DNA of 64,000 bases from Anaerolineae bacterium (GCA_038214535.1 JBBQRS010000008.1:1272-65271); one strand, 5' to 3'; shown: positions 5,788 through 61,337, numbered from the stretch's first letter. Numbers and translations are program-made. The notes: generated from the sequence alone by a model not told the origin.

Positions 5788-6201
5788 ATGCACTTGACGA
5801 TTCATGACGAACCGGATGAAGCGGAATGGAAGGCGATTGACCGCGGGCTGGAGGCGCACAGCGTCCAGTTCGCGCCGCCATTTGAATGGCGAAAATTGGC
5901 GATCTTTCTGCGCGACGAGGAGGGCGGCTTGCTGGGCGGGCTGTTGGGCGCGACCTATTGGGGCTGGCTGTACGTCGAGACCCTCTACGTCGCAGATGAG
6001 TTGCGCGGGCAGGATTGGGGGACCAAGCTGCTGGCGGAGGGCGAGGCGGAGGCGCTGCGCCGCGGCTGTCGCGCCGTGCATCTGGACACGATGTCCTATC
6101 AGGCGCTGCCCTTCTACGAAAAGTTCGGCTACACGGTGTGGGGCACGCTGGAAAACTTCGTCGGGGGCCACGACCGCTATTTTCTGCAGAAACAGCTTTA
6201 G
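5788..6201 (+). CDS. GNAT family N-acetyltransferase
   Basis: 137-aa version from ATG 5788 (AAGGA RBS); the track start 5773 abuts the MITE. The YVADELRGQDWGTKLL...FYEKFGY pattern is GNAT-like. Confidence 0.75.
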   Translation: MHLTIHDEPDEAEWKAIDRGLEAHSVQFAPPFEWRKLAIFLRDEEGGLLGGLLGATYWGWLYVETLYVADELRGQDWGTKLLAEGEAEALRRGCRAVHLDTMSYQALPFYEKFGYTVWGTLENFVGGHDRYFLQKQL

Positions 6202-6323
6202 CCACGAATTGCACGAATTATCATGAATTTTGAGAAGCCTATTCCCTTAGGCCTCGGCTTTCTGGTTTCACTCTGGAAACCAGATCCCTCAAATGATTCG
6301 TGGCAATTCGTGCAATTCGTGGC
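6201..6323. repeat. Composite word palindrome (CACGAATT words) with an inner hairpin
   Basis: Arms gccacgaattgcacgaattatcat (6201-6224) and atgattcgtggcaattcgtgcaattcgtggc (6293-6323). Inner stem tctggttt/aaaccaga at 6261-6284. Lies between convergent genes. Confidence 0.85.
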
Positions 6324-6330
6324 TGATGGA

Positions 6331-7410
6331 TTAGCCCAGGTTCTCGTAGAGGACGAGGCCGTCTTTGCCGGGGGCCACGAGATCGAGGCGTCCGTTGCCG
6401 GTGAGATCGGCCAGGGCGAAGAGGATGCCGCAGCCCTTGCCGACGCCGGGCGGGCCGTAGACAATCACCTCTTTGCTGAACGATTCGCCGTTCCACTTGA
6501 AGTAGTAGATGCCCACGTCTTCGAACTCGCCGGGGTCGTTCCCGTTGTGAGCGCGATAACGCTGGCCGGTGATCAGCTCCGGCGCGCCGTCGCCGTCAAT
6601 GTCGGCCCATTGCAGGTCGTGATACTGTGACTTGTAGGGGTCAATGGGGTGGCGCAGCCAGGTGCGCGCGCCGTCCGCGCCGATGCGTTGTTCCCACCAG
6701 TCGAGCCCGAAGCGGTGCGCCTGACCGACGATCAGGTCGTTCAGCCCGTCGCCGTTCACGTCCACCACCAGCACCGGCACGCTGGCGTATTCCAGATCGA
6801 AATCCCCGTGGAAGACCCATTCGCCGCTCCACGGGTCGGCGGGCGCTTCCAGCCAGCCGTGCTTGAGCACGAAATCGCCGCGCCCGTCGCCGTTGATGTC
6901 GCCGAAGCCGACCCCGTGGTCCTGCTTCTCCGCGTAGATTGTATGCGCCTCGAAGCGGCCCGTGCCGCGGCGCTGCGCGTCGGTCACCAGCTTGTAGACC
7001 ACCAGCGGGCCGTTGGGCGTGTTCGGCACGATCTCGAGCTGGCCGTCGCCGTCCACGTCCCACAGGCGCACCGTCTCGATGTTGTCCATCTTGGCGATCT
7101 CATGTTCCGGCCACTGGGCGTTGGGGTCGCCGGGGTTCTCGCGCCAGTGCAGGGCGTCGCCGAACCAGCCGCCGGTGATGAAGTCGAGCCGCCCGTTCCC
7201 GTTGACATCCATCGGGAGGGTGGAGAAGTCGTCGTAGTATTCGCCATATTCAGGAATCTGGCCGATGAAATGGCGGTTGGCGATACTGGGCGTCTCGTAC
7301 CAGTACGCGCCGGAGACGATCTCTGGCTTGCCGTCGCCGTCCACGTCGAAGACGCCGGCGGATTCGTAACGTTCGAGGGCGATGAAGTGTTTGCGGAAGC
7401 GAATTGACAT
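6331..7410 (-). CDS. FG-GAP / VCBS repeat protein
   Basis: Seven D-x-[DN]-G-[DN]-G repeats (DVDGDGKPEIVSG, DVNGNGRLDFITGG, DVDGDGQLEIV, DINGDGRGDFV, DVNGDGLNDLIVG, DIDGDGAPELITG, DLTGNGRLDLVAPG). AAGGAG RBS. Confidence 0.85.
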   Translation of the reverse strand: MSIRFRKHFIALERYESAGVFDVDGDGKPEIVSGAYWYETPSIANRHFIGQIPEYGEYYDDFSTLPMDVNGNGRLDFITGGWFGDALHWRENPGDPNAQWPEHEIAKMDNIETVRLWDVDGDGQLEIVPNTPNGPLVVYKLVTDAQRRGTGRFEAHTIYAEKQDHGVGFGDINGDGRGDFVLKHGWLEAPADPWSGEWVFHGDFDLEYASVPVLVVDVNGDGLNDLIVGQAHRFGLDWWEQRIGADGARTWLRHPIDPYKSQYHDLQWADIDGDGAPELITGQRYRAHNGNDPGEFEDVGIYYFKWNGESFSKEVIVYGPPGVGKGCGILFALADLTGNGRLDLVAPGKDGLVLYENLG

Positions 7411-7495
7411 AAGCCGAATAACTCCTTTGTGGTGTTGTATGGTTCGTGGTGCGGACGGGAGTCCGCACCACGAGCAAGACGGTCTTACGAGCGCA

Positions 7496-8551
7496 CTATG
7501 AGCCGTGGATGAGCCGGATGTAGTCGCGGGCGATACGCAGGTCTTCCAGGGCCTCGGCAGCTTCGCAGGGTGGGCGCGCCTCGCCGCGAATTGCCGCGAG
7601 GAAGTTGCTCGCCTGCTGGCGCATGGCGTGAACCCACGGCAGTTGCGGGATGACCGTTTCGGGCGCGACGTCGCCGGGGTCGCGGAAGATCTCGACCCGG
7701 CCGGGACGGTTGCAGGCCAGCGGCGCGGGCAGCTCCAGCTTGATGTAGCCCCGCTCGAAGCAGATCAGCGCCGATTCCTGCCAGTCAATTGTCGTGCGGT
7801 AAGGCGACATCTCGATAGTGCACGCGACGCCGCTCTCGCTCTGCCCGGCCAGCAGCACGCCCGACGGGTCGGCGTAGGTCACGCGGTACGGCTCGCCCAG
7901 CAGATAGCGCATCAGATTGACCTGGTGGATATAGTAGTTCACGAAGGCGACGTATTGCTTGAAGGTTTCGGCGTCCATGTCGGGCGGGGCGGGATCGCGC
8001 GGCAGGTCGGGGTAGGGCGCGGGGTCGCGGATCAGGTCGTTGAAGCCGCCGGCGATCCAGTCGCCCGCGGGCATCAGGATGCGCACGTAGGTCATGTGAC
8101 CCAGCTCGCCGGTCTCCTTCAGGCGCGCGATCTCGGCGCGGGCGACAGTGGTGGCGGGGTCGCTGCGTTTGTGATAGCCCAGCATCCACCACGCGCCGCT
8201 TTCCGCGACGGCGGACACCAGCCGCTCGCCCACCGGCACGGACGCGGCCAGCGGCTTTTCCGTGAACACGGGCGTCCCGGCCTGCAACAGTTCGGGGATC
8301 AGCACGCCGTGACGGTCGAACGGCTGGGTGGCGACGATGCCGTCCAGCGTCTCCGCGGCGAGCATCTCGGCGTGAGAGGGGTAGACGCGCGGCACGCCGT
8401 AGCGCGCGGCGACCTGCTGGCCCAGCGCCGCGCGCACTTCGGCGATGGCGACAACCTCGCAGTCGGGCAGGGCGGCGTAATTCTTCAGGTGGGCGCACTG
8501 GCCCATGCTGCCCACACCGACGAAACCGATACGCACTTTGGACTCCGGCAT
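7496..8551 (-). CDS. Gfo/Idh/MocA family oxidoreductase
   Basis: Start trimmed to MPESKVRIGFVGVGSMGQ (ATG 8551, AAGGAG RBS). The track's longer start runs into the MITE-like element. Confidence 0.85.
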   Translation of the reverse strand: MPESKVRIGFVGVGSMGQCAHLKNYAALPDCEVVAIAEVRAALGQQVAARYGVPRVYPSHAEMLAAETLDGIVATQPFDRHGVLIPELLQAGTPVFTEKPLAASVPVGERLVSAVAESGAWWMLGYHKRSDPATTVARAEIARLKETGELGHMTYVRILMPAGDWIAGGFNDLIRDPAPYPDLPRDPAPPDMDAETFKQYVAFVNYYIHQVNLMRYLLGEPYRVTYADPSGVLLAGQSESGVACTIEMSPYRTTIDWQESALICFERGYIKLELPAPLACNRPGRVEIFRDPGDVAPETVIPQLPWVHAMRQQASNFLAAIRGEARPPCEAAEALEDLRIARDYIRLIHGS

Positions 8552-8573
8552 ATGGCGCTCCTTTGCGATGAGT

Positions 8574-8678
8574 GTAGGGGCAAGGCGTTCCCCGGTGATA
8601 TGTTGCGCGACCGATGTAGCGCTTTCTTTCCAACATCGCTTGTTAAGCACGCAATTGGGAGGAACGCCTTGCCCCTAC
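8574..8678. mobile_element. MITE-like element, copy 2 (same TIRs, opposite interior orientation)
   Basis: TIRs at 8574-8591 and 8661-8678 are identical to those of copy 1. Sits 22 nt upstream of the oxidoreductase start codon. Confidence 0.7.
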
Positions 8679-8747
8679 GGCTACGATTTGTGATAAGGAT
8701 AACGGGAAGATCGGGGAAGGGCAAGTTGCGCCGCGCGGATTTTTTGC

Positions 8748-8874
8748 TCACGCGGAGGCGCGGAGACGCGGAGGATTCTTTGATTTTCGGAGAGCCTGAG
8801 TCGAGGTAAGCAGGCCAATCGCACGGCGCGCGATGATTGGCTTAATTCTTCCGCGTCTCCGCGTCTCCGCGTGA
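8748..8874. repeat. Composite word palindrome (GCGGAGACGCGGAG words) with an inner hairpin
   Basis: Arms tcacgcggaggcgcggagacgcggaggattctt and aattcttccgcgtctccgcgtctccgcgtga. Inner stem gccaatc/gattggc (8814-8841). Confidence 0.85.
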
Positions 8875-10119: not shown

Positions 10120-10851
10120 TTACCTCAGCCGCTCGCCGCCGTCCACGGGCAGCAGGACGCCGGTGATGTAGGGGGCTTTGGCGAGAAAGACGACCGCATC
10201 CGCCACGTCTTCGGCTGTACCCCAGCGCCCCAGCAACGTGCGTTTGGCCGTGGCTGCGTTTTGCGCCTCGGTGTAATCGGGCGGGGGCAGCACCGGGCCG
10301 GGCGCGACGGCGTTCACCCGCACGGCGGGCGCAAGCTCCTGCGCCAGCCCATAGGTGAGGTTGAGCAACCCGGCTTTCGCGGCGGAGTGGGCGAGGAAGT
10401 TAGGGAACGGCTTGAGCGCCGACAGGTCCACGATGTTGATGATCGCGCCGTTGCCGTGCGCCGTGAGATAGGGCGAGGCGGCTTTGGCGCACAGGAATGC
10501 GCCCTTCAGATCCACGTCCACCTTGGCATCCCACATCTCCTCCGTCAACTCCTCCCACGGAGTGCGTTGCCAGACGGAGGCGCTATTTACCAGCACGTCG
10601 AGGCGACCGAAGCGTGCGATGGCCGCGTCCACCATCGCCTGCACCTGCGCGCCCTGCGCGACGTCGGCCTGGAACGCGAGCGCCTGCCGGCCACGCGCTT
10701 CGATCTCCGCGACGGTCTGTGTGGACGCGGCGGCGGAAGTGTTGTAGTTCATCACGATATCGGCCCCTGCGTCGGCCAGCGCCAGTGAGATGGCCTTGCC
10801 CACGCGGACTGCCCCGCCGGTGACCAGCGCGACTTTGCCGTTAAGATCCAT
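10120..10851 (-). CDS. SDR family oxidoreductase
   Basis: Start trimmed to MDLNGKVALVTGGAVRVGKAI (TGxxxxxG). Catalytic-region pattern SAAKAG (Y-to-S variant?). AAGGAG RBS. Confidence 0.8.
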   Translation of the reverse strand: MDLNGKVALVTGGAVRVGKAISLALADAGADIVMNYNTSAAASTQTVAEIEARGRQALAFQADVAQGAQVQAMVDAAIARFGRLDVLVNSASVWQRTPWEELTEEMWDAKVDVDLKGAFLCAKAASPYLTAHGNGAIINIVDLSALKPFPNFLAHSAAKAGLLNLTYGLAQELAPAVRVNAVAPGPVLPPPDYTEAQNAATAKRTLLGRWGTAEDVADAVVFLAKAPYITGVLLPVDGGERLR

Positions 10852-11126
10852 GGGTTTGCTCCTTTTTTGCACCGAATTACACGAATGATGCGAAGAAAAT
10901 GATAGCTTCGGTCGAGTATACCATGTCTCAGGCAGGCCGGGCGAAAGCCACGCCTGGACGTATTGCATTTTCGGGGCAACCCACCGCGGTGTCGAGCTGA
11001 GGCCCACCGTTTGGGCCGAAGCATCTCGAATTCCGAAGCGAGACCCTTCGCTAGAGACCAAGCGTAACGTGCTTTGAAGGGTTAACCCGCTCAGGGTGAC
11101 AATCTCGCTCGCTACGCCCTATGTTG

Positions 11127-11155
11127 TTGCCGGAGCGGAAATTCCCGGCTATGAT
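11127..11155 (+). promoter_or_regulatory. Candidate sigma-70-type promoter (TTGCCG-17-TATGAT)
   Basis: Hexamers at 11127-11132 and 11150-11155, about 40 nt upstream of the epimerase ATG. Confidence 0.35.
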
Positions 11156-11194
11156 AGGGCGGCTTTGCACAATCTATTCCCAATGTGAGGCGTC

Positions 11195-12229
11195 ATGCGT
11201 TTCAAGCGAATCATCTCCGCGATTGATTCACACACCGAGGGCGAGCCGGCGCGCGTGGTGATCGGCGGCGTGCCGCACGTGCCCGGCGAGACGATGCTGG
11301 ACAAGTGGCGTTGGGCCAAAACCCACCTCGATGACCTGCGCACGATGCTGATGTTCGAGCCGCGCGGCAGCGCGATCTACTCCGGCAGCATCATCACCAC
11401 GCCCGCGACGCCGGGGGCCGATCTGGGCGTGATTTTCATCGAGACCAGCGGCTTCCTGCCGATGTGCGGCCACGGCGCGATTGCTACGGCGACGGTGATC
11501 GTCGAGGCTGGGCTGGTGGAGGTGACCGAACCCGTGACGGAGCTGACGCTGGACACCCCGGCGGGGCTGGTGAAGGCGCGCATTCGCGTGGAAGATGGCA
11601 TCGCACAGGATGTGACGATCCAGAACGTGCCGTCCTTCGCCTACCGGCTCGATCAGGTCGTGGACGTGCCGGGGCTGGGCCGCGTGACGCTGGATATCGG
11701 CTACGGCGGCAACTTCTACGCCGTAGTGGACGCGGCGCAGGTGGGACTGGAGATTGACCCGGCGCACGCCCGCCAGGTGATTGACCTGGGCAATCGGATT
11801 CGCGACGCGATCTACGAGCAGGTGGAGGTGCGCCACCCGGAGAACCCGGAGATCAACACCTGTTCGCACGTGCGCTTCATCGCCGCGCCCAGGGACCCGC
11901 GCGCCACCACGCGCAACGCGGTGCTCTACTCCGCGGAGGCGATTGACCGGTCGCCGTGCGGCACGGGCACGTCGGCGGAGATGGCGGTGCGCCACGCGCG
12001 CGGCGTGCAAAAGTTGGGCGATGAGTTCGTGAGCGAAAGCATCATCGGCAGCATCTTCTACGGCAATCTGGTGGAGGAGACCAAAGTTGGGCCGTACACG
12101 GCGGTCGTGCCCACCATCCGCGGCAGCGCCTACGTCACCGGCATCCAGCAGTTCGTGCTCGACCCGCGCGACCCGTGGCCGAACGGCTTCTTCCTCGGCG
12201 CGCCCAGCCGCTGGGGCGCAGAGATTTAA
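11195..12229 (+). CDS. Proline racemase family enzyme, Cys/Cys type (4-hydroxyproline 2-epimerase or proline racemase)
   Basis: Both catalytic Cys motifs are present: PMCGHGAIA and DRSPCGTGTSA. Confidence 0.85.
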   Translation: MRFKRIISAIDSHTEGEPARVVIGGVPHVPGETMLDKWRWAKTHLDDLRTMLMFEPRGSAIYSGSIITTPATPGADLGVIFIETSGFLPMCGHGAIATATVIVEAGLVEVTEPVTELTLDTPAGLVKARIRVEDGIAQDVTIQNVPSFAYRLDQVVDVPGLGRVTLDIGYGGNFYAVVDAAQVGLEIDPAHARQVIDLGNRIRDAIYEQVEVRHPENPEINTCSHVRFIAAPRDPRATTRNAVLYSAEAIDRSPCGTGTSAEMAVRHARGVQKLGDEFVSESIIGSIFYGNLVEETKVGPYTAVVPTIRGSAYVTGIQQFVLDPRDPWPNGFFLGAPSRWGAEI

Positions 12230-12230
12230 T

Positions 12231-12321
12231 AGACAGGATTTACAGGATTTACAGGATGAAAAGGAAATCAGATTCATTGCGCCCTATTCTTCCAATCCTG
12301 TAAATCCTGTAAATCCTGTCT
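12231..12321. repeat. Word palindrome (ACAGGATTT words)
   Basis: agacaggatttacaggatttacaggat (12231-12257) pairs with atcctgtaaatcctgtaaatcctgtct (12295-12321). Confidence 0.9.
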
Positions 12322-12345
12322 TCTTTGGAAAGGGAACAAAGCCGC

Positions 12346-13506
12346 GTGTATCCTGATGTGGTGGTGATTGGCGGGGGGATCGTGGGGTGCGCGTGCGCGT
12401 ATTACCTGGCGCGCGCGGGGGTAAACGTGCGCCTGCTGGAGCGCGGGCCGCTGGGTTCCGGCGCATCGCGTGCGGGGATGAGCCACGTCGTGACGTGGGA
12501 GGAGCCGGAGCCGCACCTCGAACTGGCGCGCGCCAGCAACCGCCTTTACCAGACCCTGGGCGCCGAGCTGGACGCCGAGCTGGAATATCGCCGCACGGGC
12601 AGCATCGCCATTGTCGAGAAGCCCGAATCGCTGCCCGGCATGGCCGCGATGGTCGAGCGGTTGCAGGCGTGGGGGCTGGATTGTCGCTCCTTGAGCCGCG
12701 AGGAGTTGCTGGCGATGGAGTCGAGCCTTGCGCCCGATGTGGCCGGCGGCGCGTATTTCCCCACCGACGCCCAGGTGAACCCGCTCTACACCACGCGGGC
12801 GCTGGCCCGCGCTGCGACGGCGCTGGGGGCGTCCATCGAGCCGTTCGCCGAGGTGACGGGGATCGAGCGGAACGCCGGTGGGCGCGTGACGGGCGTGCAG
12901 ACCCGCGCCGGGCGGATACCTGCGGGGGCTGTGGTGAACGCAGCGGGCGCGTACGCGGGGCAGGTCGCCGCGTGGGCCGGGCTGGAGATCCCCATCCGCC
13001 CGCGTAAGGGGACGCTGGTGATCACGGCGCCCGCGCCCGCTAATACGATGAACTGCAAGGTGATCCTGGCGGCGGGTTATATGGACGCGGTGCGCGACGG
13101 CGGCAGTGGCGTGGCCGTCGCCGCGAACGTCCAGCAGTTGGGCAATGGCAACCTGTTGCTGGGCAGCAGCCGGCAGTTCGTCGGGTTTGACACGAGCGTA
13201 GATTCGGCGGTGGTGGGGCTGATGGTGGAGCGCTGTCTGCGGTTCTTCCCGGCGCTGGCGGGCCTGACCGCGATCCGCGTGTGGGCCGGGTTACGGCCTT
13301 ACACGCCCGACCTGTTGCCAGTAATCGGCCCCGCGCTGGGCGCGCCCGGCTTCTTCATGGCTGCGGGGCATGAGGGCATTGGCATCACGGAGGCGCCCAT
13401 CACGGGGCTATTAATAAGCCAACTATTGACGGGCGCGCCGGTGGAGGTGTCGGTGGACGCGTTCGCGCCCGCGCGCTTTGCGGTGATACTGGATACATCA
13501 CCCTGA
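12346..13506 (+). CDS. FAD-dependent oxidoreductase (DAO family; D-hydroxyproline dehydrogenase beta-like / opine oxidase B-like)
   Basis: VYPDVVVIGGGIVGCACAYYLARAG dinucleotide-binding motif. GTG 12346 preferred over the track's TTG at 12325. Confidence 0.8.
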   Translation: MYPDVVVIGGGIVGCACAYYLARAGVNVRLLERGPLGSGASRAGMSHVVTWEEPEPHLELARASNRLYQTLGAELDAELEYRRTGSIAIVEKPESLPGMAAMVERLQAWGLDCRSLSREELLAMESSLAPDVAGGAYFPTDAQVNPLYTTRALARAATALGASIEPFAEVTGIERNAGGRVTGVQTRAGRIPAGAVVNAAGAYAGQVAAWAGLEIPIRPRKGTLVITAPAPANTMNCKVILAAGYMDAVRDGGSGVAVAANVQQLGNGNLLLGSSRQFVGFDTSVDSAVVGLMVERCLRFFPALAGLTAIRVWAGLRPYTPDLLPVIGPALGAPGFFMAAGHEGIGITEAPITGLLISQLLTGAPVEVSVDAFAPARFAVILDTSP

Positions 13507-13517
13507 CCAGCCACTTT

Positions 13518-13571
13518 GTAGTGACGGCTTTAGCCGTTGTAGTGCCCACAAACGGCTAAAGCCGTCACTAC
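13518..13571. repeat. Hairpin element, family A
   Basis: gtagtgacggctttagccgtt pairs with aacggctaaagccgtcactac. Confidence 0.85.
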
Positions 13572-13631
13572 GAAGGGGAAAAACACGATGGAAAGTTATT
13601 TCGCATGATCCTGCACAAGGAGGAACAACAC

Positions 13632-14534
13632 ATGGCTCGATTTGAAGGCGTTTACGCAGTGACCTGCACGCCGTTCGATACGGAGGGCGCGGTGGATGAG
13701 GCCGCGCTGCGGCGGCACATCCGTTGGATGCTGGACGAGGGCGGCGTGCATGGCATCATTCCGACGGGCAGCACCGGCGAGTTCGCGTATCTGGATAACG
13801 ACGAGTTGCGCCGGGTGCTGGATGTCACGCTGGAAGAAGTGGACGGGCAGGTTCCGGTGATCGCCGGGGCCGCGGCCTGCGCCACGCGTGAGACCATCCG
13901 CCGCGCGCGGGATGCGGAAGAGGCCGGGGCCGACGGCGTGATGATCGTCTCGCCCTACTACGGCCACCTGGCGCAGGAGGAACTGTACGCGCACTTCCGC
14001 GCCGTCGCCGAGAGCAGCGCGCTCCCGATTATCCTCTACAACAACCCCGGCGCGTCCGGCTCTGACGTGTTGGCGGAGACGGTGGCGCGGTTGGCCGAGT
14101 TCGAGAACATCGCGGCGGTGAAGGAGAGCACCGGCGAGATGCAGCGCGTGAACGAGATCATGCGGTTGTGCGGCGACAAGATTGAGGTGCTGTGCGGGTG
14201 CGATACGCTGCCGCTAGAGATGTTCAAGATGGGCGTCCGGGGCTGGGTGGCCGCGCCCGCGAACAGTATCCCGCGGGAATGCGTGGCGCTCTATACGCTG
14301 GCTGTGGAGCGGGGCGACGACGCGGCGGCGCGGGCGCTCTACGACACGTTGCTGCCCCTCTTCGAACTGTTCGAGGGGACGGGCCAGTACGTGCAGCTCA
14401 ACAAGGCGGCGCTGGCGATGATGGGGCGGCCCATCGGCGCGCCGCGGCCCCCGTTGTTGCCCGTCAGTGAGGCGCGCCGATCTGAACTGCGCGGGATCCT
14501 CGCCGCGATCCACGCGTACGAGGTCGTGTGGTGA
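13632..14534 (+). CDS. DapA/HBPHA family lyase (candidate pyrroline-4-hydroxy-2-carboxylate deaminase)
   Basis: AAGGAGG RBS at 13617-13623. GIIPTGSTGEF and a Schiff-base Lys region AAVKES typical of the dihydrodipicolinate synthase family. Function inferred from cluster context. Confidence 0.75.
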   Translation: MARFEGVYAVTCTPFDTEGAVDEAALRRHIRWMLDEGGVHGIIPTGSTGEFAYLDNDELRRVLDVTLEEVDGQVPVIAGAAACATRETIRRARDAEEAGADGVMIVSPYYGHLAQEELYAHFRAVAESSALPIILYNNPGASGSDVLAETVARLAEFENIAAVKESTGEMQRVNEIMRLCGDKIEVLCGCDTLPLEMFKMGVRGWVAAPANSIPRECVALYTLAVERGDDAAARALYDTLLPLFELFEGTGQYVQLNKAALAMMGRPIGAPRPPLLPVSEARRSELRGILAAIHAYEVVW

Positions 14535-14836
14535 CCGCGGCGGAAAGTTCGCGGCGCTTCGGCCCTGCGCCCGAGCGTGTGCTTAATTTTACCGTGGACG
14601 GCGCGCCCTGCACCGCCTATCCCGGCGACACGATTGCCGCGGCGCTGTACGCGGCCGGGGTGCGCGCCTGGCGACGTTCGCGGCATGGCGACCTGCGCGG
14701 GCTCTTCTGCGGGATCGGCGTCTGTTATGACTGCCTGGTGACGGTGGACGGCGCGCCGAACCGGCGCGCGTGCCAGATCGAGGTGCGCGAGGGGATGGCC
14801 GTGGAGACCAACCTGGGCGACGAGGCCGTGCCGTGA
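14528..14836 (+). CDS. (2Fe-2S)-binding small subunit (opine oxidase / D-Hyp dehydrogenase gamma-like)
   Basis: GTG start overlaps the upstream stop. Cys cluster FCGIGVCYDCLVTVDG...RACQ. Confidence 0.75.
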   Translation: MVTAAESSRRFGPAPERVLNFTVDGAPCTAYPGDTIAAALYAAGVRAWRRSRHGDLRGLFCGIGVCYDCLVTVDGAPNRRACQIEVREGMAVETNLGDEAVP

Positions 14837-16212
14837 CCCTGACACCCGATGTGGCCGTGGTGGGAGGTGGGCCGGCGGGCCTGAGCGCGGCGCTGGCGGC
14901 GCGGCAGGCCGGCGCGACGGTGATCCTGTTCGACGCGGCGGCGCGTCCGGGCGGCCAGTATTATCGCCAACCCCCGGATCGGTTGCGTGGCGCGGCGTCG
15001 CACCGGCAGGCGGAAGGCCGGCGACTGTGGGAAGAGGTCGCGGCCGCAGGCGTGGAGATCCGCTCAGGGTGGCAGGCGTGGAACCTGACGCCTGAGCGTG
15101 TGCTCTCGGTGGCCGGGCCGGGGGGCAGCGAAACCTGCACGGCGCGCGCGGTCGTCGTGGCCGCGGGCGCATACGAGCGGGTGCTGCCGTTTCCCGGCTG
15201 GACCACCCCCGGCGTGATCACCGCCGGCGCGGCGCAAACGCTGCTCGACCAGGGTGTGCGACCCGGCAGGCGCGCGCTGGTCGCGGGTACGGGGCCGCTG
15301 AACCTGACGACGGCCGCGGCGTTGCTGCGCGACGGCGTGGAGGTAGTCGCTGTGCTGGAGGGATCGCCGCTTTACCGGCTCGGCGCGCGCCATGCGACCG
15401 GTTTTTGGGGCCAGTGGGAGCGGCTACGCGAGGGGACCGAGAGCGTCGCGCAGATGGCGCGCCACGGCACACCCTATCGGGTCGGGTGGGGACTGATGGC
15501 GGTGCACGGTGACGCGGGCATCGAGGGCGCGACCATCGCGCGCCTCGACGCGGAGTGGCGACCGATTTCCGGCAGCGAGCGGGAGATTACGTGCGACACC
15601 GTATGCGTTGGCTACGGGCTGACGCCGTTCTACGCGTTGGCGGCGGTGGCGGGGGCGCAACTCGAATGGCGGCCCGACCGGGGCGGGCAGGTCCCGCTGC
15701 GTGATGCAACCTTTTGCACCACCGTGCCGGGCGTGTACGCGGTCGGCGATGGCGCAGGGATCGGCGGGGCGCGCATGTCCATGCTGGAAGGCGAGGTCGC
15801 GGGGATCGCCGCGGCGGCGCTGGCGGGGCATGGGATCGCGGATGCACAAGACCGGTTGCGCGGGCTGGGGCCGGCGCTGGCGCGCGAGGAGCGGTTCCGG
15901 CGCGCATACGCGGCGCTTTTCACGCCGGGGCCGGGTGCGTTCGAGCGCGCCGACGATGCGGCGCTGATCTGTCGCTGCGAAGGCGTGACGTTGGGGATGG
16001 TGCGCGTCGCCGCCGCAGGAGGCGCGACGACGCTGGTGGAGCTTAAGGCGGCCACGCGCTGCGGGATGGGCGAATGCCAGGGGCGGATGTGCGACCATGC
16101 GGCCGCGCACGCGCTGGCGCGTTTCACCGGGCGCAGCGTGGCCGAGGTTGGCCTCAATCATCCGCGCCCGCCGGTGCTATCCCTGCCGCTGGCGCAGATA
16201 GCTGATGGCTGA
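14833..16212 (+). CDS. NAD(P)/FAD-dependent oxidoreductase (alpha-like subunit, HcnB/OoxA-like)
   Basis: GTGA start/stop overlap at 14833-14836. DVAVVGGGPAGLSAALAARQAG and a second GxGxxN motif. C-terminal Cys-rich CRCEGVT...CGMGECQGRMC. Confidence 0.8.
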   Translation: MTLTPDVAVVGGGPAGLSAALAARQAGATVILFDAAARPGGQYYRQPPDRLRGAASHRQAEGRRLWEEVAAAGVEIRSGWQAWNLTPERVLSVAGPGGSETCTARAVVVAAGAYERVLPFPGWTTPGVITAGAAQTLLDQGVRPGRRALVAGTGPLNLTTAAALLRDGVEVVAVLEGSPLYRLGARHATGFWGQWERLREGTESVAQMARHGTPYRVGWGLMAVHGDAGIEGATIARLDAEWRPISGSEREITCDTVCVGYGLTPFYALAAVAGAQLEWRPDRGGQVPLRDATFCTTVPGVYAVGDGAGIGGARMSMLEGEVAGIAAAALAGHGIADAQDRLRGLGPALAREERFRRAYAALFTPGPGAFERADDAALICRCEGVTLGMVRVAAAGGATTLVELKAATRCGMGECQGRMCDHAAAHALARFTGRSVAEVGLNHPRPPVLSLPLAQIADG

Positions 16213-16280
16213 TAGCTGATGGCAGATAGCAAAGAGTTAAGCCATCGGCCATTCGCCATCCGCCATCAGCTATCAGCCAT
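16197..16280. repeat. Word palindrome (GATAGCTGATGGC words)
   Basis: The left arm 16197-16230 overlaps the last 5 codons and stop of the upstream CDS. Right arm 16241-16280. Lies between convergent genes. Confidence 0.85.
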
Positions 16281-16283
16281 TCG

Positions 16284-17879
16284 TTACCGCGGGATGTACC
16301 CGACCATGCGGCCGTCGGCGGTGAAGTAGCCGCACGGACAGTTGGACGTATCAACGACCGGCGGCGGCGTGGGTGTGGGCGGCGGCGGCGCTGCGGGCGG
16401 GCGGAAGATCGTCGGCATGTACACGCGATGGCTCGCATCGGGTTGCGCCGCCGGCGCGTCTGGCGCAGCCGGCGCGGCCAGCTCACCCAACGCAGCCGGT
16501 GCATCCGGCGCGGCCCACGCAACTGACGCACTCGGCTCCACGAACGCAGATTGTTCATCTTCAGCGTCCGGCATTGCCGCCGGGAGGGCGCCGGTGTTGC
16601 CGTCCCAACCGGGGCCGACCTGCCGCAACGGTGTCACCGTCAACCCCGCCGCAATGGGTGTGATGCGATAGAAGTAGACCGTCAAGGTCATCACGGCGTC
16701 ATGGATGGCGTCCAGTAGCGCGCGGGGACAGCCGCCGTTGGTCATACAGGGATCGTAGGCGATGCCCGTCGGCACGAAGTATTCCGGCGCGGTCAGTTTG
16801 CTGGGATCATCGAAGAACGGGAGATAACCCGATCCGCCCGACTGATCGGCGTCGCGCCATTGCCCGTAGAACGGGATCGGCATCGTATTGATGTGATCTA
16901 CGGAGAGGCGTCCCCCGGCGCTGCGGATGCGATAGGTGCCGCCGCCGGGATAATGCGGGTTCTTGCCGTAAGGGTCTACGGGGGTTAGAGGCTGCCGCAT
17001 CATGATGTAATTCATACCGGCGGGCGGTGTGAAGGAAAGATCCTGGTGTCGCTGGCTGAACCGATCGTCCATCTGGTCCTGCAGCGAGGCCAGCATCCCG
17101 GCATAACCTGGGCCGATGTACGATTGGAAGGTGAAGTTCTGGCTGCCCAACACAGCCACGGAGACCGTGCGTGGGGTTTGAAACTTGAATTCCGCGACGA
17201 CGTTGCTGCCGGGGTTTTGCAACCAGTACCAGCAGCCGGAGTTGGCCGGGACGACGACTTCGCCCGCCGCGTTGTATTGCACCTGCCCGCCATATTCGGG
17301 GTAGCGTTGGCCCGTGCTGGGGCCGTTCGGCAGGATGAACCCGGCGGGAAAGTATTCGAAGTCCTTCCCCAGTTGCCGGGAGACATCTACGCCGTTGTCG
17401 AAGATCCGCATCGTGGATGCGGGCACGGCGACCAACCATTCATCGCGATCGCCGGGTTTGCCCAGGCACATCACGAGGTTGGGATACTGGGAGACCATCT
17501 TCGCGCGGATCGTCACCGTGTTGCCCACACGTTGGCCCGATTCGTAGAGCGCCACGCCGACGCCGGGCCAGTAGCGAATGATAGACCCGCGCAGGTGGTC
17601 TTCCGGCACTTCGCCCACCATATCCACAAAGCTCAGCCCGCGCGGTTCGAGCCATGCGGGAGCGTCCGGTGCAGCCGGCGCGACGAGCGGTTCTTGACGG
17701 AGACTTTCGCCCTGGGGTTGGGCGCGCACAGGTTGCGGCAGCATGGCCGCGATCAGGAGAATCAATCCGCTGAAGAGGCGGATGAGGGGTATCAGCCGTT
17801 TCGAGACGGTTGAAGGGTCAGGAGCGTATCGCTGTGCAGTCCTTACCTCTATTTTAGTCGTTTCAATTTGTGTTTGCAT
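16284..17879 (-). CDS. Secreted protein of unrecognised family, paralogue A (531 aa)
   Basis: Aligns end to end with 18059-19597. Hydrophobic segment LIPLIRLFSGLILLIAAMLPQPVRAQ. Conserved Cys pairs and C-terminal NCPCGYFTADGRMVG. Start chosen at MQTQ by analogy with paralogue B. Confidence 0.8.
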   Translation of the reverse strand: MQTQIETTKIEVRTAQRYAPDPSTVSKRLIPLIRLFSGLILLIAAMLPQPVRAQPQGESLRQEPLVAPAAPDAPAWLEPRGLSFVDMVGEVPEDHLRGSIIRYWPGVGVALYESGQRVGNTVTIRAKMVSQYPNLVMCLGKPGDRDEWLVAVPASTMRIFDNGVDVSRQLGKDFEYFPAGFILPNGPSTGQRYPEYGGQVQYNAAGEVVVPANSGCWYWLQNPGSNVVAEFKFQTPRTVSVAVLGSQNFTFQSYIGPGYAGMLASLQDQMDDRFSQRHQDLSFTPPAGMNYIMMRQPLTPVDPYGKNPHYPGGGTYRIRSAGGRLSVDHINTMPIPFYGQWRDADQSGGSGYLPFFDDPSKLTAPEYFVPTGIAYDPCMTNGGCPRALLDAIHDAVMTLTVYFYRITPIAAGLTVTPLRQVGPGWDGNTGALPAAMPDAEDEQSAFVEPSASVAWAAPDAPAALGELAAPAAPDAPAAQPDASHRVYMPTIFRPPAAPPPPTPTPPPVVDTSNCPCGYFTADGRMVGYIPR

Positions 17880-17945
17880 GCGCCTGTCGTCTGGATGTGA
17901 TCGTCGGCTTCCCCACATGCGCACGCATCGCTAAAGCACACGCGC

Positions 17946-17973
17946 ATTATACGTGAGGATTGTGACGTGTCAA
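17946..17973 (-). promoter_or_regulatory. Consensus sigma-70-type promoter TTGACA-16 nt-TATAAT
   Basis: On the minus strand, TTGACA is 17973-17968 and TATAAT is 17951-17946. The flanking block is conserved with 19666-19693. Confidence 0.75.
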
Positions 17974-18025
17974 ACAAGCGCGGGCCTGAGAGGCGAGTTT
18001 CCGGCCCGCGCCGTGGTCTGAACGG

Positions 18026-18051
18026 GGCGCGCGTTGCGCATCACGCGCGCC
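18026..18051 (-). terminator. GC hairpin between the two paralogue units (no U-tract)
   Basis: ggcgcgcg / cgcgcgcc 8-bp stem with a 10-nt loop, 8 nt downstream of the paralogue B stop. Confidence 0.4.
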
Positions 18052-18058
18052 GGGCCGC

Positions 18059-19597
18059 TCAGAACGGTTGGGGCAGGAAGCCCACCATGCGTCCGTCGGC
18101 GGTGAAGATGCCGCACGGACAGTTAGCGCCGGTGTAGATGATGCGCGTCGTTGCGGGGTTTGTGGCTATGGCCGGCATGTAGATGTGATGGTTCGTGTTC
18201 GCCTCGGCCGGCGCGCTGTTGGCAACAGCCGGCGCGTCATGGGTTACGGAGGCCGGGTCCCAGCCGGGGCCGACCTGGCGCAGCGGCAGAACTTTCAGCC
18301 CGGCGACCGTTGGCTGGACGTTGTAGAAGTAGACCGTGAGCGGCGTCTCCGCGTCGTGGATGGCGTTCAGCAGCGCCGATGAGCAGCCGCCGTTGGTCAT
18401 GCACGGGTCATATGAGATGCCTTGCGGGACGAAGTACTCCGGCGCGGAGATGGCGATGCCATCGGTGAAGTAAGGCAGGAAGTCCGCGCCGCCCGATTGG
18501 TCTGCGTCTTGCCATTGCCCGTAATACGGGATGCCCATCGTGTTGATGTGATCTACGGAGAGTTTGGTGTTGGGCCGGCGCACGCGATAGGTGCCGCCGC
18601 CCGGATAGTTCGGGCTGGGTCCGTAGGGGTCCACCGGGGTGAGCGGGTAGCGTACCAGCACGTAGTTCGTGCCTGCCGGTGGTGAGATGAGAAAGTTCTC
18701 GTGCCGGTTGCCGAAACGCGATTGCATCTGGCCGCGCAGGGAATCGAGCAGGCCGGCCGAGCCCGGGCCGATGTAGGAATGGAAGACCGCAGATTGGCTG
18801 CCGAGTTGCTCGACCGAGACCACGGGCGGCGAATTGAAGGTGAATTCCGCTTCCAGGTCGCCGCTGGTGTAGTGCAGGATGAAGGAGCAGCCGGTGTTGG
18901 CGGGCACGAGGGCCGCGCCGGAGGCATTGAACTGCAACTGTCCCTTGTATTCCGGGTAGCGGTAGTTATACGTGGGGGCGCTGGGTTGCGTCAGCCCTGC
19001 CGGGAAGTAGTAGAAAACCGGCGAGACCCGGTTGGTGATGTCCACGCCATGCTCGAACACCCTCATGGTGGATTCGGGCACGACGACCGGCCACTGGTCA
19101 TATTCGCCGGGCTTGCCGAGACAAAAGGCCATGCCGGGCCATTGCATCGAGTACTTCACCCGGATCGTGACCTGGTTGCCGTTGCGCCTTCCCCATTGAT
19201 ATAGCGTCAGGGAGAGGCCAGGCCAGTAGCGGATGATCGCGCCGCGCAGTTGATCTTCGGGCACGATGCCTACCAGGTCAACGATGCTCAGGCCGCGCGG
19301 CTCGACCCAGGCCGGGGTCGCGTCTACGTTTGACACGTTCGCCGGTTCAGGGATGGCCGCGCCGGTCGCGCTCGCGTAGGGCGGCTCGGTCGCGTCGGAT
19401 ACGACAGGCGGTTCCTGCGGCGCGTCCGTCTCCATAGACTGAGCGCGCGCGGTGTAGGGCAGCAGAGTTGAGGTGAGCAGGATCAGCAGGAGCAGGAGGT
19501 TCAGCCGTTTCGCGTCGGCAGGTCGGTTGAGGGAAGATTGGAATGCGTGTTGCTGGTTGGTCAGATCGAGTTGGTGTATTTTCTCTTTCTTGTCCAT
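18059..19597 (-). CDS. Secreted protein of unrecognised family, paralogue B (512 aa)
   Basis: Roughly 55-60% identical by eye to paralogue A. Hydrophobic segment LNLLLLLILLTSTLLPYTARAQ. C-terminal NCPCGIFTADGRMVG. Confidence 0.85.
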   Translation of the reverse strand: MDKKEKIHQLDLTNQQHAFQSSLNRPADAKRLNLLLLLILLTSTLLPYTARAQSMETDAPQEPPVVSDATEPPYASATGAAIPEPANVSNVDATPAWVEPRGLSIVDLVGIVPEDQLRGAIIRYWPGLSLTLYQWGRRNGNQVTIRVKYSMQWPGMAFCLGKPGEYDQWPVVVPESTMRVFEHGVDITNRVSPVFYYFPAGLTQPSAPTYNYRYPEYKGQLQFNASGAALVPANTGCSFILHYTSGDLEAEFTFNSPPVVSVEQLGSQSAVFHSYIGPGSAGLLDSLRGQMQSRFGNRHENFLISPPAGTNYVLVRYPLTPVDPYGPSPNYPGGGTYRVRRPNTKLSVDHINTMGIPYYGQWQDADQSGGADFLPYFTDGIAISAPEYFVPQGISYDPCMTNGGCSSALLNAIHDAETPLTVYFYNVQPTVAGLKVLPLRQVGPGWDPASVTHDAPAVANSAPAEANTNHHIYMPAIATNPATTRIIYTGANCPCGIFTADGRMVGFLPQPF

Positions 19598-19665
19598 GCT
19601 TATTTTGCGTAGTTAAGGCACAGGATCAGCACCCCGGCATGCGCACAACGCCAAAGCACTCAGTC

Positions 19666-19693
19666 ATTATACAAAAAGATTGTGATGTGTCAA
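19666..19693 (-). promoter_or_regulatory. Consensus sigma-70-type promoter TTGACA-16 nt-TATAAT
   Basis: On the minus strand, TTGACA is 19693-19688 and TATAAT is 19671-19666, about 60 nt upstream of the ATG at 19597. Confidence 0.75.
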
Positions 19694-19886
19694 ACAAGCG
19701 CAAGATGGCAGATAGCGAATAGCTGATGGCGGATGGTTCGTAGTCGCCCGCAAGGGCGCTGCATAGATGGCGGGCGGCGTTATGTCTCATCAGGAAAGCG
19801 TATGAATCCTGTTCGGTAAGCTATGTCACTTGTCTGGGGCTTCATATAGAGTAAGCTGAAGTCATTCCAGATAAGGAGGTATCCTG

Positions 19887-20843
19887 ATGTCTCACAGAGA
19901 TAGGCTGAAAGTTCGAGGCCGGATGCTGTTGTTGCTCGGCCTCCTGTTGGCGCTGGCGCTGCCGGGGGTCGCTGCGGCCCAGGCGCCGGTCTTCCCCGAT
20001 CTGATTCAACTCCCCGTCGGCTTTGCGCCGGAGGGCATCGCGGTGGGTCGCGGCACGAGCTTCTACACCGGCTCGCTGGCCGACGGCTCGGTTTATGGCG
20101 GCGACCTGCGCACCGGCGAGGGCGCAATCCTGGTTTCGCCGCAGGCCGGACGCATCGCCGTGGGCATGAAGGTGGACACGCGGACGAACTATCTGTTCGT
20201 CGCCGGTGGAACGGGCGGCGAGGCGTATGTTTATGACGCCGCGACCGGCGCGGAGGTGGCGGTGATCCCGCTGGGGCTGCCCGGCGCAAGCTTCATCAAT
20301 GACGTTGTCGTGACGCGTGATGCGGCGTACTTCACCAACTCGTTTGCGCCCTACTTCTACCGGGTGCGGTTGGGGCCGGGCGGCGCGCTGCCCGATCCGG
20401 TCGTCGCCGAGCCGGTGATGTTGACGGGCCAGTGGATGCAGGTCCCGGGCGCGTTTGTGTTCAACAGCAATGGCATCGCCGCAACGCCGAACGGCAAGCG
20501 CCTGATCATCGTCAACAGCGCGACGGGCAAGCTCTATCGGGTGGACCCGGCGAACGGCGGGGCCGATGAGATTGACCTGGGCGGCGAGGTGATGACCAAC
20601 GGCGACGGGATTCTGTTACACGGCAAGACGCTCTACGTGGTGCAGAATCGCTTGAACCGGATCGCCGTGATCGGCATTGCGCCCGATTACGCGTCGGGCA
20701 GCGTGGATCGCTACATCACCAATCCCAACTTCGATGTCCCGACGACCATCGCCGAATATGGGAAGTTCCTGTATGCGGTGAACGCCAAGTTCGGCACGCC
20801 GGCCCCCGGCACACCGTATGAGGTGGTGCAGGTTAGCCGATAG
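19887..20843 (+). CDS. Secreted beta-propeller-like protein (SMP-30/gluconolactonase/LRE-like fold suspected)
   Basis: AAGGAGG RBS. Signal peptide MLLLLGLLLALALPGVAAAQA. Repetitive beta-strand-rich pattern. Function not established. Confidence 0.6.
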   Translation: MSHRDRLKVRGRMLLLLGLLLALALPGVAAAQAPVFPDLIQLPVGFAPEGIAVGRGTSFYTGSLADGSVYGGDLRTGEGAILVSPQAGRIAVGMKVDTRTNYLFVAGGTGGEAYVYDAATGAEVAVIPLGLPGASFINDVVVTRDAAYFTNSFAPYFYRVRLGPGGALPDPVVAEPVMLTGQWMQVPGAFVFNSNGIAATPNGKRLIIVNSATGKLYRVDPANGGADEIDLGGEVMTNGDGILLHGKTLYVVQNRLNRIAVIGIAPDYASGSVDRYITNPNFDVPTTIAEYGKFLYAVNAKFGTPAPGTPYEVVQVSR

Positions 20844-20883: not shown

Positions 20884-20931
20884 AGATCGCGGATAGCTGA
20901 TAGCCTGATGGCGGATAATAGCTGATAGCAG

Positions 20932-20978
20932 AAACCCCGCTCTATCGACAAGGCCGATAGAGCGGGGTTTTTGTTCTT
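20932..20978. terminator. Intrinsic terminator between convergent genes
   Basis: 16-bp stem aaaccccgctctatcg / cgatagagcggggttt, then TTGTTCTT on the plus strand. Confidence 0.75.
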
Positions 20979-21606: not shown

Positions 21607-21664
21607 TCCTTGTCTACTTATTTCCTTGTCTCCTTATTTCCTTGTCTCCTTGTTTCCTTATCCC
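21607..21664. repeat. Tandem word tract (CCTTGTCTCC / TTATTTCCTTG words)
   Basis: tccttgtctacttatttccttgtctccttatttccttgtctccttgtttccttatccc. Same word family as 51035-51087, 53168-53215, 60980-61072 and 61290-61337. Confidence 0.8.
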
Positions 21665-36123: not shown

Positions 36124-36253
36124 GGAGCGGGGATCAGGTATCGGGGAACGGGAACAGGGATCGAGGAGTTGCAGGGTAGTCTTGCCTTTCCTGTATCGCT
36201 GATACCCAATACCAGATACCTGATCCCTGATACCTGCTCCCTGACACCTGACA
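36124..36253. repeat. Word palindrome (GATACCTGATCCC words)
   Basis: ggggatcaggtatc (36129-36142) is complementary to gatacctgatccc (36215-36227). Tandem tgatacc/tgatccc/tgacacc words on the right arm. Confidence 0.75.
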
Positions 36254-41314: not shown

Positions 41315-41419
41315 CTGATAGCAGATGGCTGATGGCGCTCCCTCGCCCTTCGGGAGAGGGTCGGGGTGAGGGCCGATGGCCGGCTCCCTCGCCCTTTGGG
41401 AGAGGGTCGGGGTGAGGGC
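41309..41419. repeat. GATAGCTGATGGC word tract followed by two tandem family D hairpins
   Basis: Words at 41309-41337 include the sulfatase TAG stop. Family D copies at 41337-41373 and 41383-41419. Confidence 0.85.
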
Positions 41420-60979: not shown

Positions 60980-61337
60980 ACCACGAAGGAACGAAGTAAG
61001 GATACAAGGAAATAAGGAAACAGGGAAACAAGTAGACAAGGAGGCAAGGAGACAGGTAGACAAGGAGACAAGCTGAGGAGTGAGCACGCTACGAGGTGGC
61101 GTCAGATGCGAACGATGGGGTAGAGGCGCTGAGGCTTAGTCGTTCGCGTAGGGGTGTGGTCGCCACGCCCTGGCCGCGGCGCGCTTTCTTCCCAGACCTG
61201 ACAGGTTTCGCAAACCTGTCAGGTCTTGCGCGTCCAGCCCTCACCCTAACCCTGTCCCAAAGGGCGAGGGAACCAGACCCCCTCTTCCCCTCTACTTGCC
61301 TACTTGTTTACTTGTCTCCTTGTCTCCTTGCCTACTG
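60980..61337. repeat. Intergenic region built almost entirely of repeats
   Basis: Word tract 60980-61072, family F 61082-61111, family B 61194-61226, family D 61237-61270, and an inverted word tract 61290-61337 that contains the stop of the lipoprotein gene. Confidence 0.85.

Follow-up and report, generated by a model that had tools for sequence, protein, structure and literature searches.

A 64,000-nucleotide (nt) stretch of DNA from an Anaerolineae bacterium (GCA_038214535.1 JBBQRS010000008.1:1272-65271), referred to here as the window, carries on its minus strand two tandem genes, A and B, whose predicted products are exported proteins of a family without a recognised relative. An initial annotation of this locus had described two secreted paralogues, each with its own perfect promoter and conserved leader, and had suggested either a major envelope, sheath or surface-layer (S-layer)-like component or an abundant secreted enzyme, an interpretation that was partly supported by the analyses presented here. 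The consensus promoters and the leader are under selection, the family is a genuine, undescribed and lineage-restricted one, seen so far only in uncultured Caldilineales-type Chloroflexota, and its members are recurrently linked to GT-C-type envelope glycosylation genes. An abundant protein of the cell surface is our tentative reading of these observations.

The gene pair, its promoters and its leaders

The proteins encoded by genes A and B are 52% identical across 469 amino acids (aa) (BLASTP, expectation value (E) 4e-177), and all of the shared blocks described earlier occur in both, including H.[IV]YMP.I and NCPCG.FTADGRMVG. The reading frame of gene A stays open upstream of its ATG as far as a GTG at 17924, and the use of the ATG at 17879 is backed by the N-terminus of the orthologue P0004. 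The public gene call for this protein (P0007, 486 aa) begins at Met46 (window 17742-17879), which lies within the predicted signal peptide. The ending A[RQ]AQ assigned to both signal segments by the initial annotation was recovered in B, and did not apply to A, where the corresponding residues are VRAQ. Export by the twin-arginine (Tat) route and lipoprotein status were both rejected, since KR rather than RR precedes the hydrophobic segment and no Cys lies near the cleavage site of either protein. The coordinates of all features are given in Table 1.

Table 1. Features of the gene pair and its immediate surroundings, in window coordinates
Feature	Coordinates	Strand	Remarks
Gene A	16284-17879	minus	531-aa precursor from ATG; based on the open reading frame (ORF) list and BLASTP against gene B
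Gene A promoter and leader start	17921-17981	minus	-35 TTGACA 17968-17973, -10 TATAAT 17946-17951, 16-nt spacer; repeat D7
Gene A leader following promoter		minus	GTGCTTTAGCGATGCGTGCGCATG
Gene A predicted signal peptide	17721-17879	minus	residues ~1-53; predicted cleavage between VRA and Q
Gene A conserved core	16602-17660	minus	residues ~74-426; then Pro/Ala-rich spacer
Gene A VYMPTI motif	16407-16424	minus
Gene A tail	16287-16343	minus	NCPCGYFTADGRMVGYIPR
Gene B	18059-19597	minus	512 aa; paralogue of gene A
Gene B promoter and leader start	19641-19701	minus	-35 at 19688-19693, -10 at 19666-19671, 16-nt spacer
Gene B predicted signal peptide	19442-19597	minus	residues 1-52; predicted cleavage between ARA and Q
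Gene B disordered stretch		minus	residues 53-91
Gene B core	18233-19324	minus	residues 92-455; then spacer
Gene B IYMPAI motif	18167-18184	minus	downstream of spacer
Gene B tail	18062-18124	minus	NCPCGIFTADGRMVGFLPQPF
GC-rich hairpin	18020-18060	minus	inner 9-bp stem 18026-18051; directly 3' of gene B stop codon
Imperfect palindrome	16194-16283		37-nt arms, 81% complementary; GATAGCT/GATGGCT heptamers
Five-gene cluster	11195-16212	plus	proline-racemase family, DAO, DHDPS-like, Fer2_4, FAD oxidase subunit; convergent with gene A
318-aa secreted protein	19887-20843	plus	divergent from the pair; no Pfam match

Both genes are preceded by TTGACA-16-TATAAT, matching the consensus at 12/12 positions (minus strand, 17946-17973 for A and 19666-19693 for B), and the end of the -10 hexamer lies 66 nt from the start codon of gene A and 68 nt from that of gene B. 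With their hexamers 16-18 nt apart and upstream of a gene, both sites have the form expected of sigma-70-type promoters. A search for TTGACA-N15-19-TATAAT returned 2 matches in the 64 kb, just these two, with 0.00 expected from 100 shuffles; they are thus not due to chance, and the earlier observation that such perfect pairs occur only here was confirmed. The hexamers are part of a shared block, GCGCTTGTTTGACAC.TCACAATC....GTATAATG followed by the leader GTGCTTT.GCG.TG..GTGCGCATG, which spans 61 nt, starting some 8 nt ahead of the -35 hexamer and reaching about 25 nt into the leader, and is 79% identical between the two genes. The likeness ends at both edges of the block.

Related loci from other genomes (designated L001 to L051) provided additional information about this block. 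The promoter block of gene A also precedes the orthologue in L001, and conservation of the B-type leader extends to L001, L045/46, L049 and the more distantly related L047, where the protein is only ~55% identical to gene B and the same leader follows TTGACA-17-TACAAT. Near-consensus promoters (10-11/12) were found upstream of distant members in 6/40 loci, against 0.015 expected per 300 nt.

A functionless leftover of recent duplication or gene conversion, with a coincidental match to the consensus, would also produce upstream regions that resemble each other, and would be in keeping with the presence of the exact block in only a handful of closely related sequences and with a leader in which neither RNA structure nor covariation was found. 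However, the duplication is old: the paralogues share only 52-57% protein identity, and in a tree that places both in one subclade, B and P0006 branch off before the A-like orthologues, which are 66-88% identical to A. Due to this age, the likeness of the promoters and leaders is not explained by recent copying. Additionally, the 61-nt block is as conserved as the best coding blocks (70-85%), whereas the flanking non-coding DNA has no similarity, and promoter and leader were both retained in L047. We therefore consider a leftover very improbable.

Nine leaders could be aligned, in which the segments GTGC, GCG, GC.CATG and GCTGA are invariant and an upstream ATG is present in 9/9. In five B-type leaders (L001, L046, L047, L049 and the window, 19628-19642 minus) this ATG opens a four-codon ORF, ATG CCG GGG TGC TGA (MPGC and stop), the corresponding position of two A-type leaders reads ATG TGA, and in gene A of the window the upstream ATG is in frame with the main ORF. 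No clear Shine-Dalgarno sequence was found at the main start codon of either A or B. A riboswitch or other structured RNA was considered for the leader and rejected. Rfam gave no gathering-score match in the window, its sole match at E<=1 being a spurious mir-3119 on the palindrome at 16194-16283; the leaders fold about as well as shuffled sequences (z -0.3, 0.1 and -1.7); and RNAalifold on the nine leaders gave -4.2 kcal/mol with no compensatory pairs or covariation. In the A-type leaders (window 17870-17940; L001 4303-4372), base pairing is possible between a conserved 5' segment, UGCGUGCGC, and the region around the start codon, GCGCAUGCA, with folds not significantly better than those of shuffles (z -0.3 and -1.7).

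The GC hairpin noted earlier between the two units was verified (18026-18051; dG -26.9 kcal/mol, z -3.2, with 1/200 shuffles equally stable), though it has no U tract. It is retained in L001 upstream of the gene A promoter and probably acts between the units, either to stop transcription or as a stem that stabilises the RNA. The palindrome directly 3' of the gene A stop codon, between convergent genes, is probably a bidirectional terminator-like stem of a repeat type found genome-wide. With its own promoter upstream and a hairpin or palindrome downstream, each gene looks like a separate transcription unit, and the promoter sequences suggest very high expression of both.

Comparison with related strains revealed that gene B has been lost repeatedly. 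L001 keeps both promoters and has an internally deleted gene B, with insertion sequences flanking the locus (rve and IS66 transposase genes on both sides); gene B is reduced to a 90-aa remnant in L045/L046, and a further disrupted remnant was found in L049. These remnants (L001 3700-4180; L045 860-1245; L046 1555-1940; L049 4530-4830) retain the promoter, leader and N-terminus, and their deletion junctions are of at least two kinds, e.g., ..EPRRINIIDLVGFLPQLY and stop and ..EPRDLSIEWSSPGRMMSFLSGSS and stop, with gene A intact. The deletion of gene B in three related strains indicates that one paralogue is dispensable. A single family copy is present in L047, while L051 has a tandem pair of its own about 2 kb apart (6001-8835 and 10774-12612), ~30% identical to the window proteins. 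The family gene also diverges faster than its syntenic neighbours, with 76% identity against 90-96% in L001 and 54-61% against ~63-92% in L047/L049. Together with the repeated loss of gene B, this fits a surface-exposed protein.

A lineage-restricted family with an unmatched predicted fold

The statement that the proteins contain no known domain was examined with profile and sequence libraries as well as a predicted structure, and no characterised family was matched. Pfam (E<=1) returned no family for A or B, NCBIfam nothing but a noise match (E 0.3) and PHROGs zero families; among PDB sequences, phmmer found no match for a single protein, and the family profile reached an E no better than 1.1. 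An AlphaFold2 model of gene B, built on a 32-sequence alignment, had a mean predicted local distance difference test (pLDDT) score of 83.8 and a predicted template modelling score (pTM) of 0.76. Residues 92-450 of the core are mostly above pLDDT 90 and the C-terminal hairpin is at 86-92, while residues 49-91 and 455-484 are below 50. In the predicted layout, the mature N-terminus is disordered and leads into a beta-rich core, and a second disordered region, the spacer with the YMP/YLP motif, precedes a confident C-terminal hairpin.

Foldseek searches with the full model reached a template modelling (TM) score of at best 0.16 in PDB and 0.15 in BFVD, where ~0.5 or more was counted as a neighbour, and the separately modelled C-terminal half (pLDDT 77.9) reached 0.21 in PDB with E 0.1. 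The matches were to generic beta-sandwich, jelly-roll and cupin folds only, such as 11S globulins, PRD1 P3 and GH86 accessory domains. With TM <=0.21, probabilities mostly <0.5 and E of 1e-3 or worse, they reflect a general beta-sandwich character rather than kinship. Judging by this model, the fold of the family appears to be new relative to solved structures (PDB) and viral models (BFVD). A virus-capsid (double jelly-roll) origin was rejected because of the low scores (TM <=0.18), the signal peptide and the absence of PHROGs matches.

A word-indexed search returned 193 homologues, each of them either nameless or called 'hypothetical'; where a source was named, it was a metagenome-assembled genome (MAG) labelled Caldilineaceae. 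The family is small: when 1.84 billion representative proteins were searched exhaustively with a profile, only 179 clusters, and no distant relatives beyond the family, were recovered. A multi-stretch match to the Big_2-repeat protein P0253 was set aside, as it looks like low-complexity noise. Scanning one genome per GTDB species yielded 38 loci, all in MAGs, under the labels Caldilineaceae, Caldilineales, Litorilinea, Caldilinea, Ca. Fredericiella, Anaerolineae and Chloroflexota; among them, L004 belongs to a Ca. Fredericiella danica MAG. Every record title that names a taxon carries a Caldilineales, Anaerolineae or other Chloroflexota label, all from MAGs or metagenomes. Many members derive from MAGs of Caldilineaceae and related filaments, several of them obtained from sludge, digester or bioreactor samples, judging by these titles.

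Member statistics were compiled for 141 full-length members. An N-terminal hydrophobic segment is present in 132/141, with a putative A-x-A site in A and B, and 128/141 have exactly six Cys; the export signal and the cysteines noted for the window pair are thus general traits of the homologues. The family layout consists of a signal peptide, an acidic beta-rich core (median isoelectric point of the mature part 5.0), a Pro/Ala spacer, an [YF]LP motif and a CPCGWF..GRM tail. Between core and tail, the spacer varies from 40 to 441 residues in length (median 53) and contains 30% Pro+Ala and 14% Ser+Thr, and the motif, more generally [YF][LM]P, lies 18-22 residues ahead of the CPCG tail. P0051 is the sole aligned member without the CPC cysteines; both are gone together and the other four are kept, which suggests that C493 and C495 may act as a pair.

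The layout of an N-terminal signal, a globular domain, a Pro/Ala/Thr spacer of 40-441 aa, sometimes with Ig-like repeats, and a short C-terminal piece is also that of wall-anchored proteins of monoderms, e.g., those with LPXTG. The end of the family differs from these in having no hydrophobic helix, basic tail, LPXTG, PEP-CTERM or GlyGly-CTERM. The tail, CPCG.F..DGRM.....P, is polar throughout with no hydrophobic stretch; it does not have the motif, hydrophobic helix and basic tail of a sortase-, exosortase- or rhombosortase-type sorting signal, and no NCBIfam sorting-domain model matches it. A six-frame regular-expression search over 460 kb of loci found the tail only on the family or on short fragments, as did a database search with a tail profile, which scored just 234 candidates and had low sensitivity. 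Within the reach of these searches, a modular signal shared with other proteins was rejected.

Gene neighbourhoods and a possible role at the cell surface

Comparison of the neighbourhoods of homologues, proposed with the initial annotation, revealed that envelope-glycan genes recur beside the family in distant lineages. At least 19 of ~41 independent loci place the family gene beside GT-C-type membrane glycosyltransferases, GT4, a methyltransferase or Wzt, in varied arrangements. In L002, L041, L043 and relatives, a methyltransferase comes first, then the family gene and a protein of 610-707 aa with 9-14 predicted membrane helices, followed by GT4 and by either PMT_2 or a different polytopic protein, and the combination of GT4, polytopic membrane proteins and methyltransferase is found in L002, 5, 7, 8/43, 9, 34 and 41. 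A second arrangement, seen in eight loci (L014-16, 18, 22, 27, 32, 37), combines a PMT/TMEM260-like GT-C protein and a Glyco_hydro_cc-like protein with the family gene and then a Wzt ATPase carrying Wzt_C. A polytopic neighbour in L029-31 has a faint arabinofuranosyltransferase-like (AftB-like) match, and in L051 the order is GT4, GT2, YfhO, family gene, GT4.

Proteins in which the family core is combined with other domains were also found. In P0152, three DUF11/CLIPPER surface repeats stand between the core and the YLP-CPCG tail, and in P0154 a 130-aa PT repeat occupies the same place. In P0180 (GCA_042580265.1, JBHOVU010000009.1), the first copy of the L051 pair, a polytopic membrane domain of ~480 residues replaces the signal peptide and is joined to the family core, which has lost several otherwise conserved motifs. 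The distant neighbourhoods, together with two fusion proteins, make an envelope role for the family likely.

The P0180 fusion and the recurrence of PMT_2, TMEM260-like, DUF6311, YfhO and faint AftB-like neighbours in varied arrangements across clades raise the question of whether the family is an exported accessory or acceptor-binding module of GT-C-type membrane glycosyltransferases, usually encoded as a separate gene. Emb and Aft enzymes of mycobacteria have soluble C-terminal carbohydrate-binding domains, and the family core, beta-sandwich-like in the model, would likewise be an extracytoplasmic module linked to a polytopic domain, by fusion in P0180 and by adjacency elsewhere. In contrast to these domains, with which it shares no detectable homology, the family is normally a separate protein with its own signal peptide and what looks like its own strong promoter, which a catalytic helper would not need. 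Furthermore, P0180 is a single fusion from one MAG and might reflect a lost stop codon, its membrane part has no Pfam family and no BLAST similarity to neighbouring membrane proteins, and no glycosyltransferase lies within 10 kb of the pair in the window genome. A role as a GT-C module is a serious alternative, but an improbable one.

Altogether, the export signal, the unmatched fold, selection on promoter and leader, the modularity, the link to glycan genes, and the divergence and paralogue loss point to an abundant cell-surface protein. Our tentative interpretation, put forward as a possibility short of an even chance, is that the family represents a surface-layer or sheath-type (glyco)protein tied to the envelope glycan machinery. 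Genes A and B would each be transcribed alone from a near-ideal sigma-70-type promoter, with the strength and the 5' and 3' ends of the transcripts deduced from the DNA. The precursor would be exported and its signal peptide cut after A-x-A, leaving a mature protein of ~45-49 kDa with the conserved beta-rich core. Two Cys pairs (C159, C237, C399, C405) and the co-varying CPC pair, all conserved, would presumably form disulfides. The Pro/Ala(/Thr) spacer of 40-441 aa may serve as a stalk, possibly O-glycosylated by the GT-C enzymes encoded alongside, and the end piece, [YF]LP.[IV] with CPCGWF..GRM 18-22 residues on, could mediate attachment to the envelope or docking on the protein's own or a neighbour's core. 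The most specific version of this proposal is rather unlikely to be correct in all its parts; it would make the family the outer layer or sheath subunit of uncultured Caldilineaceae filaments, with a new fold, a new helix-free C-terminal signal ([YF]LP.[IV] and CPCGWF..GRM), a GT-C-glycosylated stalk and a leader whose MPGC-stop mini-ORF tunes output.

Parallels with established S-layer systems were considered. The structural genes of S-layers form monocistronic units, each with a promoter of its own, and in some cases they adjoin glycosylation clusters that encode glycosyltransferases, a methyltransferase, Wzm/Wzt and a polytopic transferase (PMC2943079). Like SgsE of Geobacillus stearothermophilus NRS 2004/3a, the members of the family are acidic proteins that carry a signal peptide and are encoded by an apparently monocistronic gene with its own promoter; in some genomes, that gene adjoins a cluster for glycosyltransferases, a methyltransferase, an ABC exporter of Wzt type and a polytopic membrane transferase (PMC2943079). 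The family differs from SgsE in having no similarity of sequence or fold, no SLH or other known anchor, six conserved Cys, much higher conservation across genera, and membrane transferases of PMT/YfhO/DUF6311 type rather than Wzy_C type. A lattice-like protein layer, whose protein is unidentified, was seen by cryo-electron tomography on the outer layer of a cultured Caldilineaceae filament (PMC13319060), and by analogy a surface-layer protein would fit this layer, in a species that shows no homologue.

Several observations weigh against a surface-layer protein. Neither SLH, CWB2 nor another recognised anchoring module was found at E<=1 in Pfam or NCBIfam. No family match is named after a cultured species (Litorilinea aerophila, Caldilinea aerophila), and the family cannot therefore be the general Caldilineaceae surface layer; a link to the surface-fraction proteomics of Litorilinea aerophila (PMC13319060, Table 2) was dropped, as no L. 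aerophila homologue was identified. About half of the loci have no glycan neighbour within 4 kb, and the neighbours in the window are catabolic rather than glycan genes. In P0180, the fusion with a membrane enzyme domain is more readily explained if the family is a subunit rather than a substrate. Classic S-layer proteins are usually Cys-free and quickly diverging, while the family keeps six Cys. Its polar residues D167, R213, N234, R298, R338, D349, D364, D366 and E387 are invariant, and this combination looks more like a ligand-binding or active site.

These residues bring forward a secreted enzyme of new fold, which could be a glycan hydrolase, lyase, transglycosylase or peptide-active enzyme acting on the cell's own envelope polysaccharide or on an external polymer, the promoters then reflecting heavy demand. 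Conservation of blocks such as LSVDH.N, GQWQDADQSGG, PEYFVP.G and YDPCMTNGGC is very strong, including Asp, Glu, His and Arg residues that do not vary among members of ~40% identity, and six conserved Cys are typical of extracellular enzymes. Neighbours include GH97, the Glyco_hydro_cc-like protein and S8 peptidases, as well as the hydroxyproline catabolism cluster in the window subclade, and the weak Foldseek matches are to beta-sandwich parts of glycosidases, lectins and cupins. However, no enzyme family was matched by sequence or structure, and the 'VDH' block is lost in the divergent subfamily (P0152 and the L051 copies), so that it is not a universal catalytic motif. The long stalk-like spacers and the DUF11 repeats between core and tail are also better suited to a displayed or anchored protein. 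We regard an enzyme as somewhat unlikely, but as the main alternative to a surface-layer or sheath-type protein.

Caldilineaceae-related filaments are common in activated sludge, soils and sponges, where they affect floc structure and bulking, and to our knowledge their envelope proteins are essentially uncharacterized. As a lineage-specific, probably highly expressed and exported protein with an unmatched fold and a link to GT-C genes, the family is a concrete candidate for a major surface component of these uncultivated organisms. It could provide a handle on organisms that cannot be grown, as an antibody or fluorescence in situ hybridization (FISH)-tag target or as a phage-receptor candidate, and would represent a new structural family with what may be a novel motif for C-terminal attachment. 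If the proteins are enzymes instead, they would constitute a new class acting on envelope or environmental polymers.

A motif resembling the one ahead of the tail was also seen outside the family. In the Glyco_hydro_cc-like neighbour of one clade (L015 2342-3619, L022 2344-3699, L027 111-1358), [IV][YF]LP[LIV]V occurs just after the membrane anchor, e.g., VFLPIVYRDFG. Among 99 kb-equivalents of other ORFs it was found 5 times against ~1 expected, and 3/5 of these are in that neighbour. The motif may serve in processing or attachment specific to this lineage.

Flanking genes and intergenic repeats of the window

The pair is flanked by a hydroxyproline-type catabolic cluster and by the divergent gene for the 318-aa secreted protein. 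The cluster is of a composition typical of hydroxyproline or opine catabolism and is linked to the family gene in the window's relatives L001, L047 and L049, with the family gene on its other side in L049. The 318-aa protein has a sequence match (E 2e-25) to residues 177-436 of a chain that was entered in the PDB as Cu-Zn 'SodC' (9m58). This partner is found beside the family gene in the window as well as in L044-L050, including L049, where the pair lies on the opposite side of the cluster, and is 70-77% identical in L047 and L049. Genes for an iron permease and a dehydratase follow beyond it in the window.

Short tandem repeats with units of 7-9 nt, and in one case 16 nt, occupy intergenic positions at 16194-16283, 19703-19748, 20885-20933, 41303-41333 and 55070-55100, and further repeat sites are located at 2519-2542, 12233-12319, 21607-21661, 36190-36251, 53170-53226, 60998-61072 and 61291-61336. 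As the heptamers around the pair recur at three other intergenic sites in the window, they were rejected as ends of a mobile unit. The GATAGCT/GATGGCT heptamer family has 18 matches against 0.4 expected, and other repeat units of the window include ACAGGATTT, CTGATAC, ACAGGGAA, AAGGAGAC, TCTACTTG and TCCTTGTCTCCTTATT. Such repeats are a genome-wide habit, separate from the finding of the gene pair, and are reminiscent of the short tandemly repeated repetitive (STRR) sequences known from filamentous cyanobacteria.

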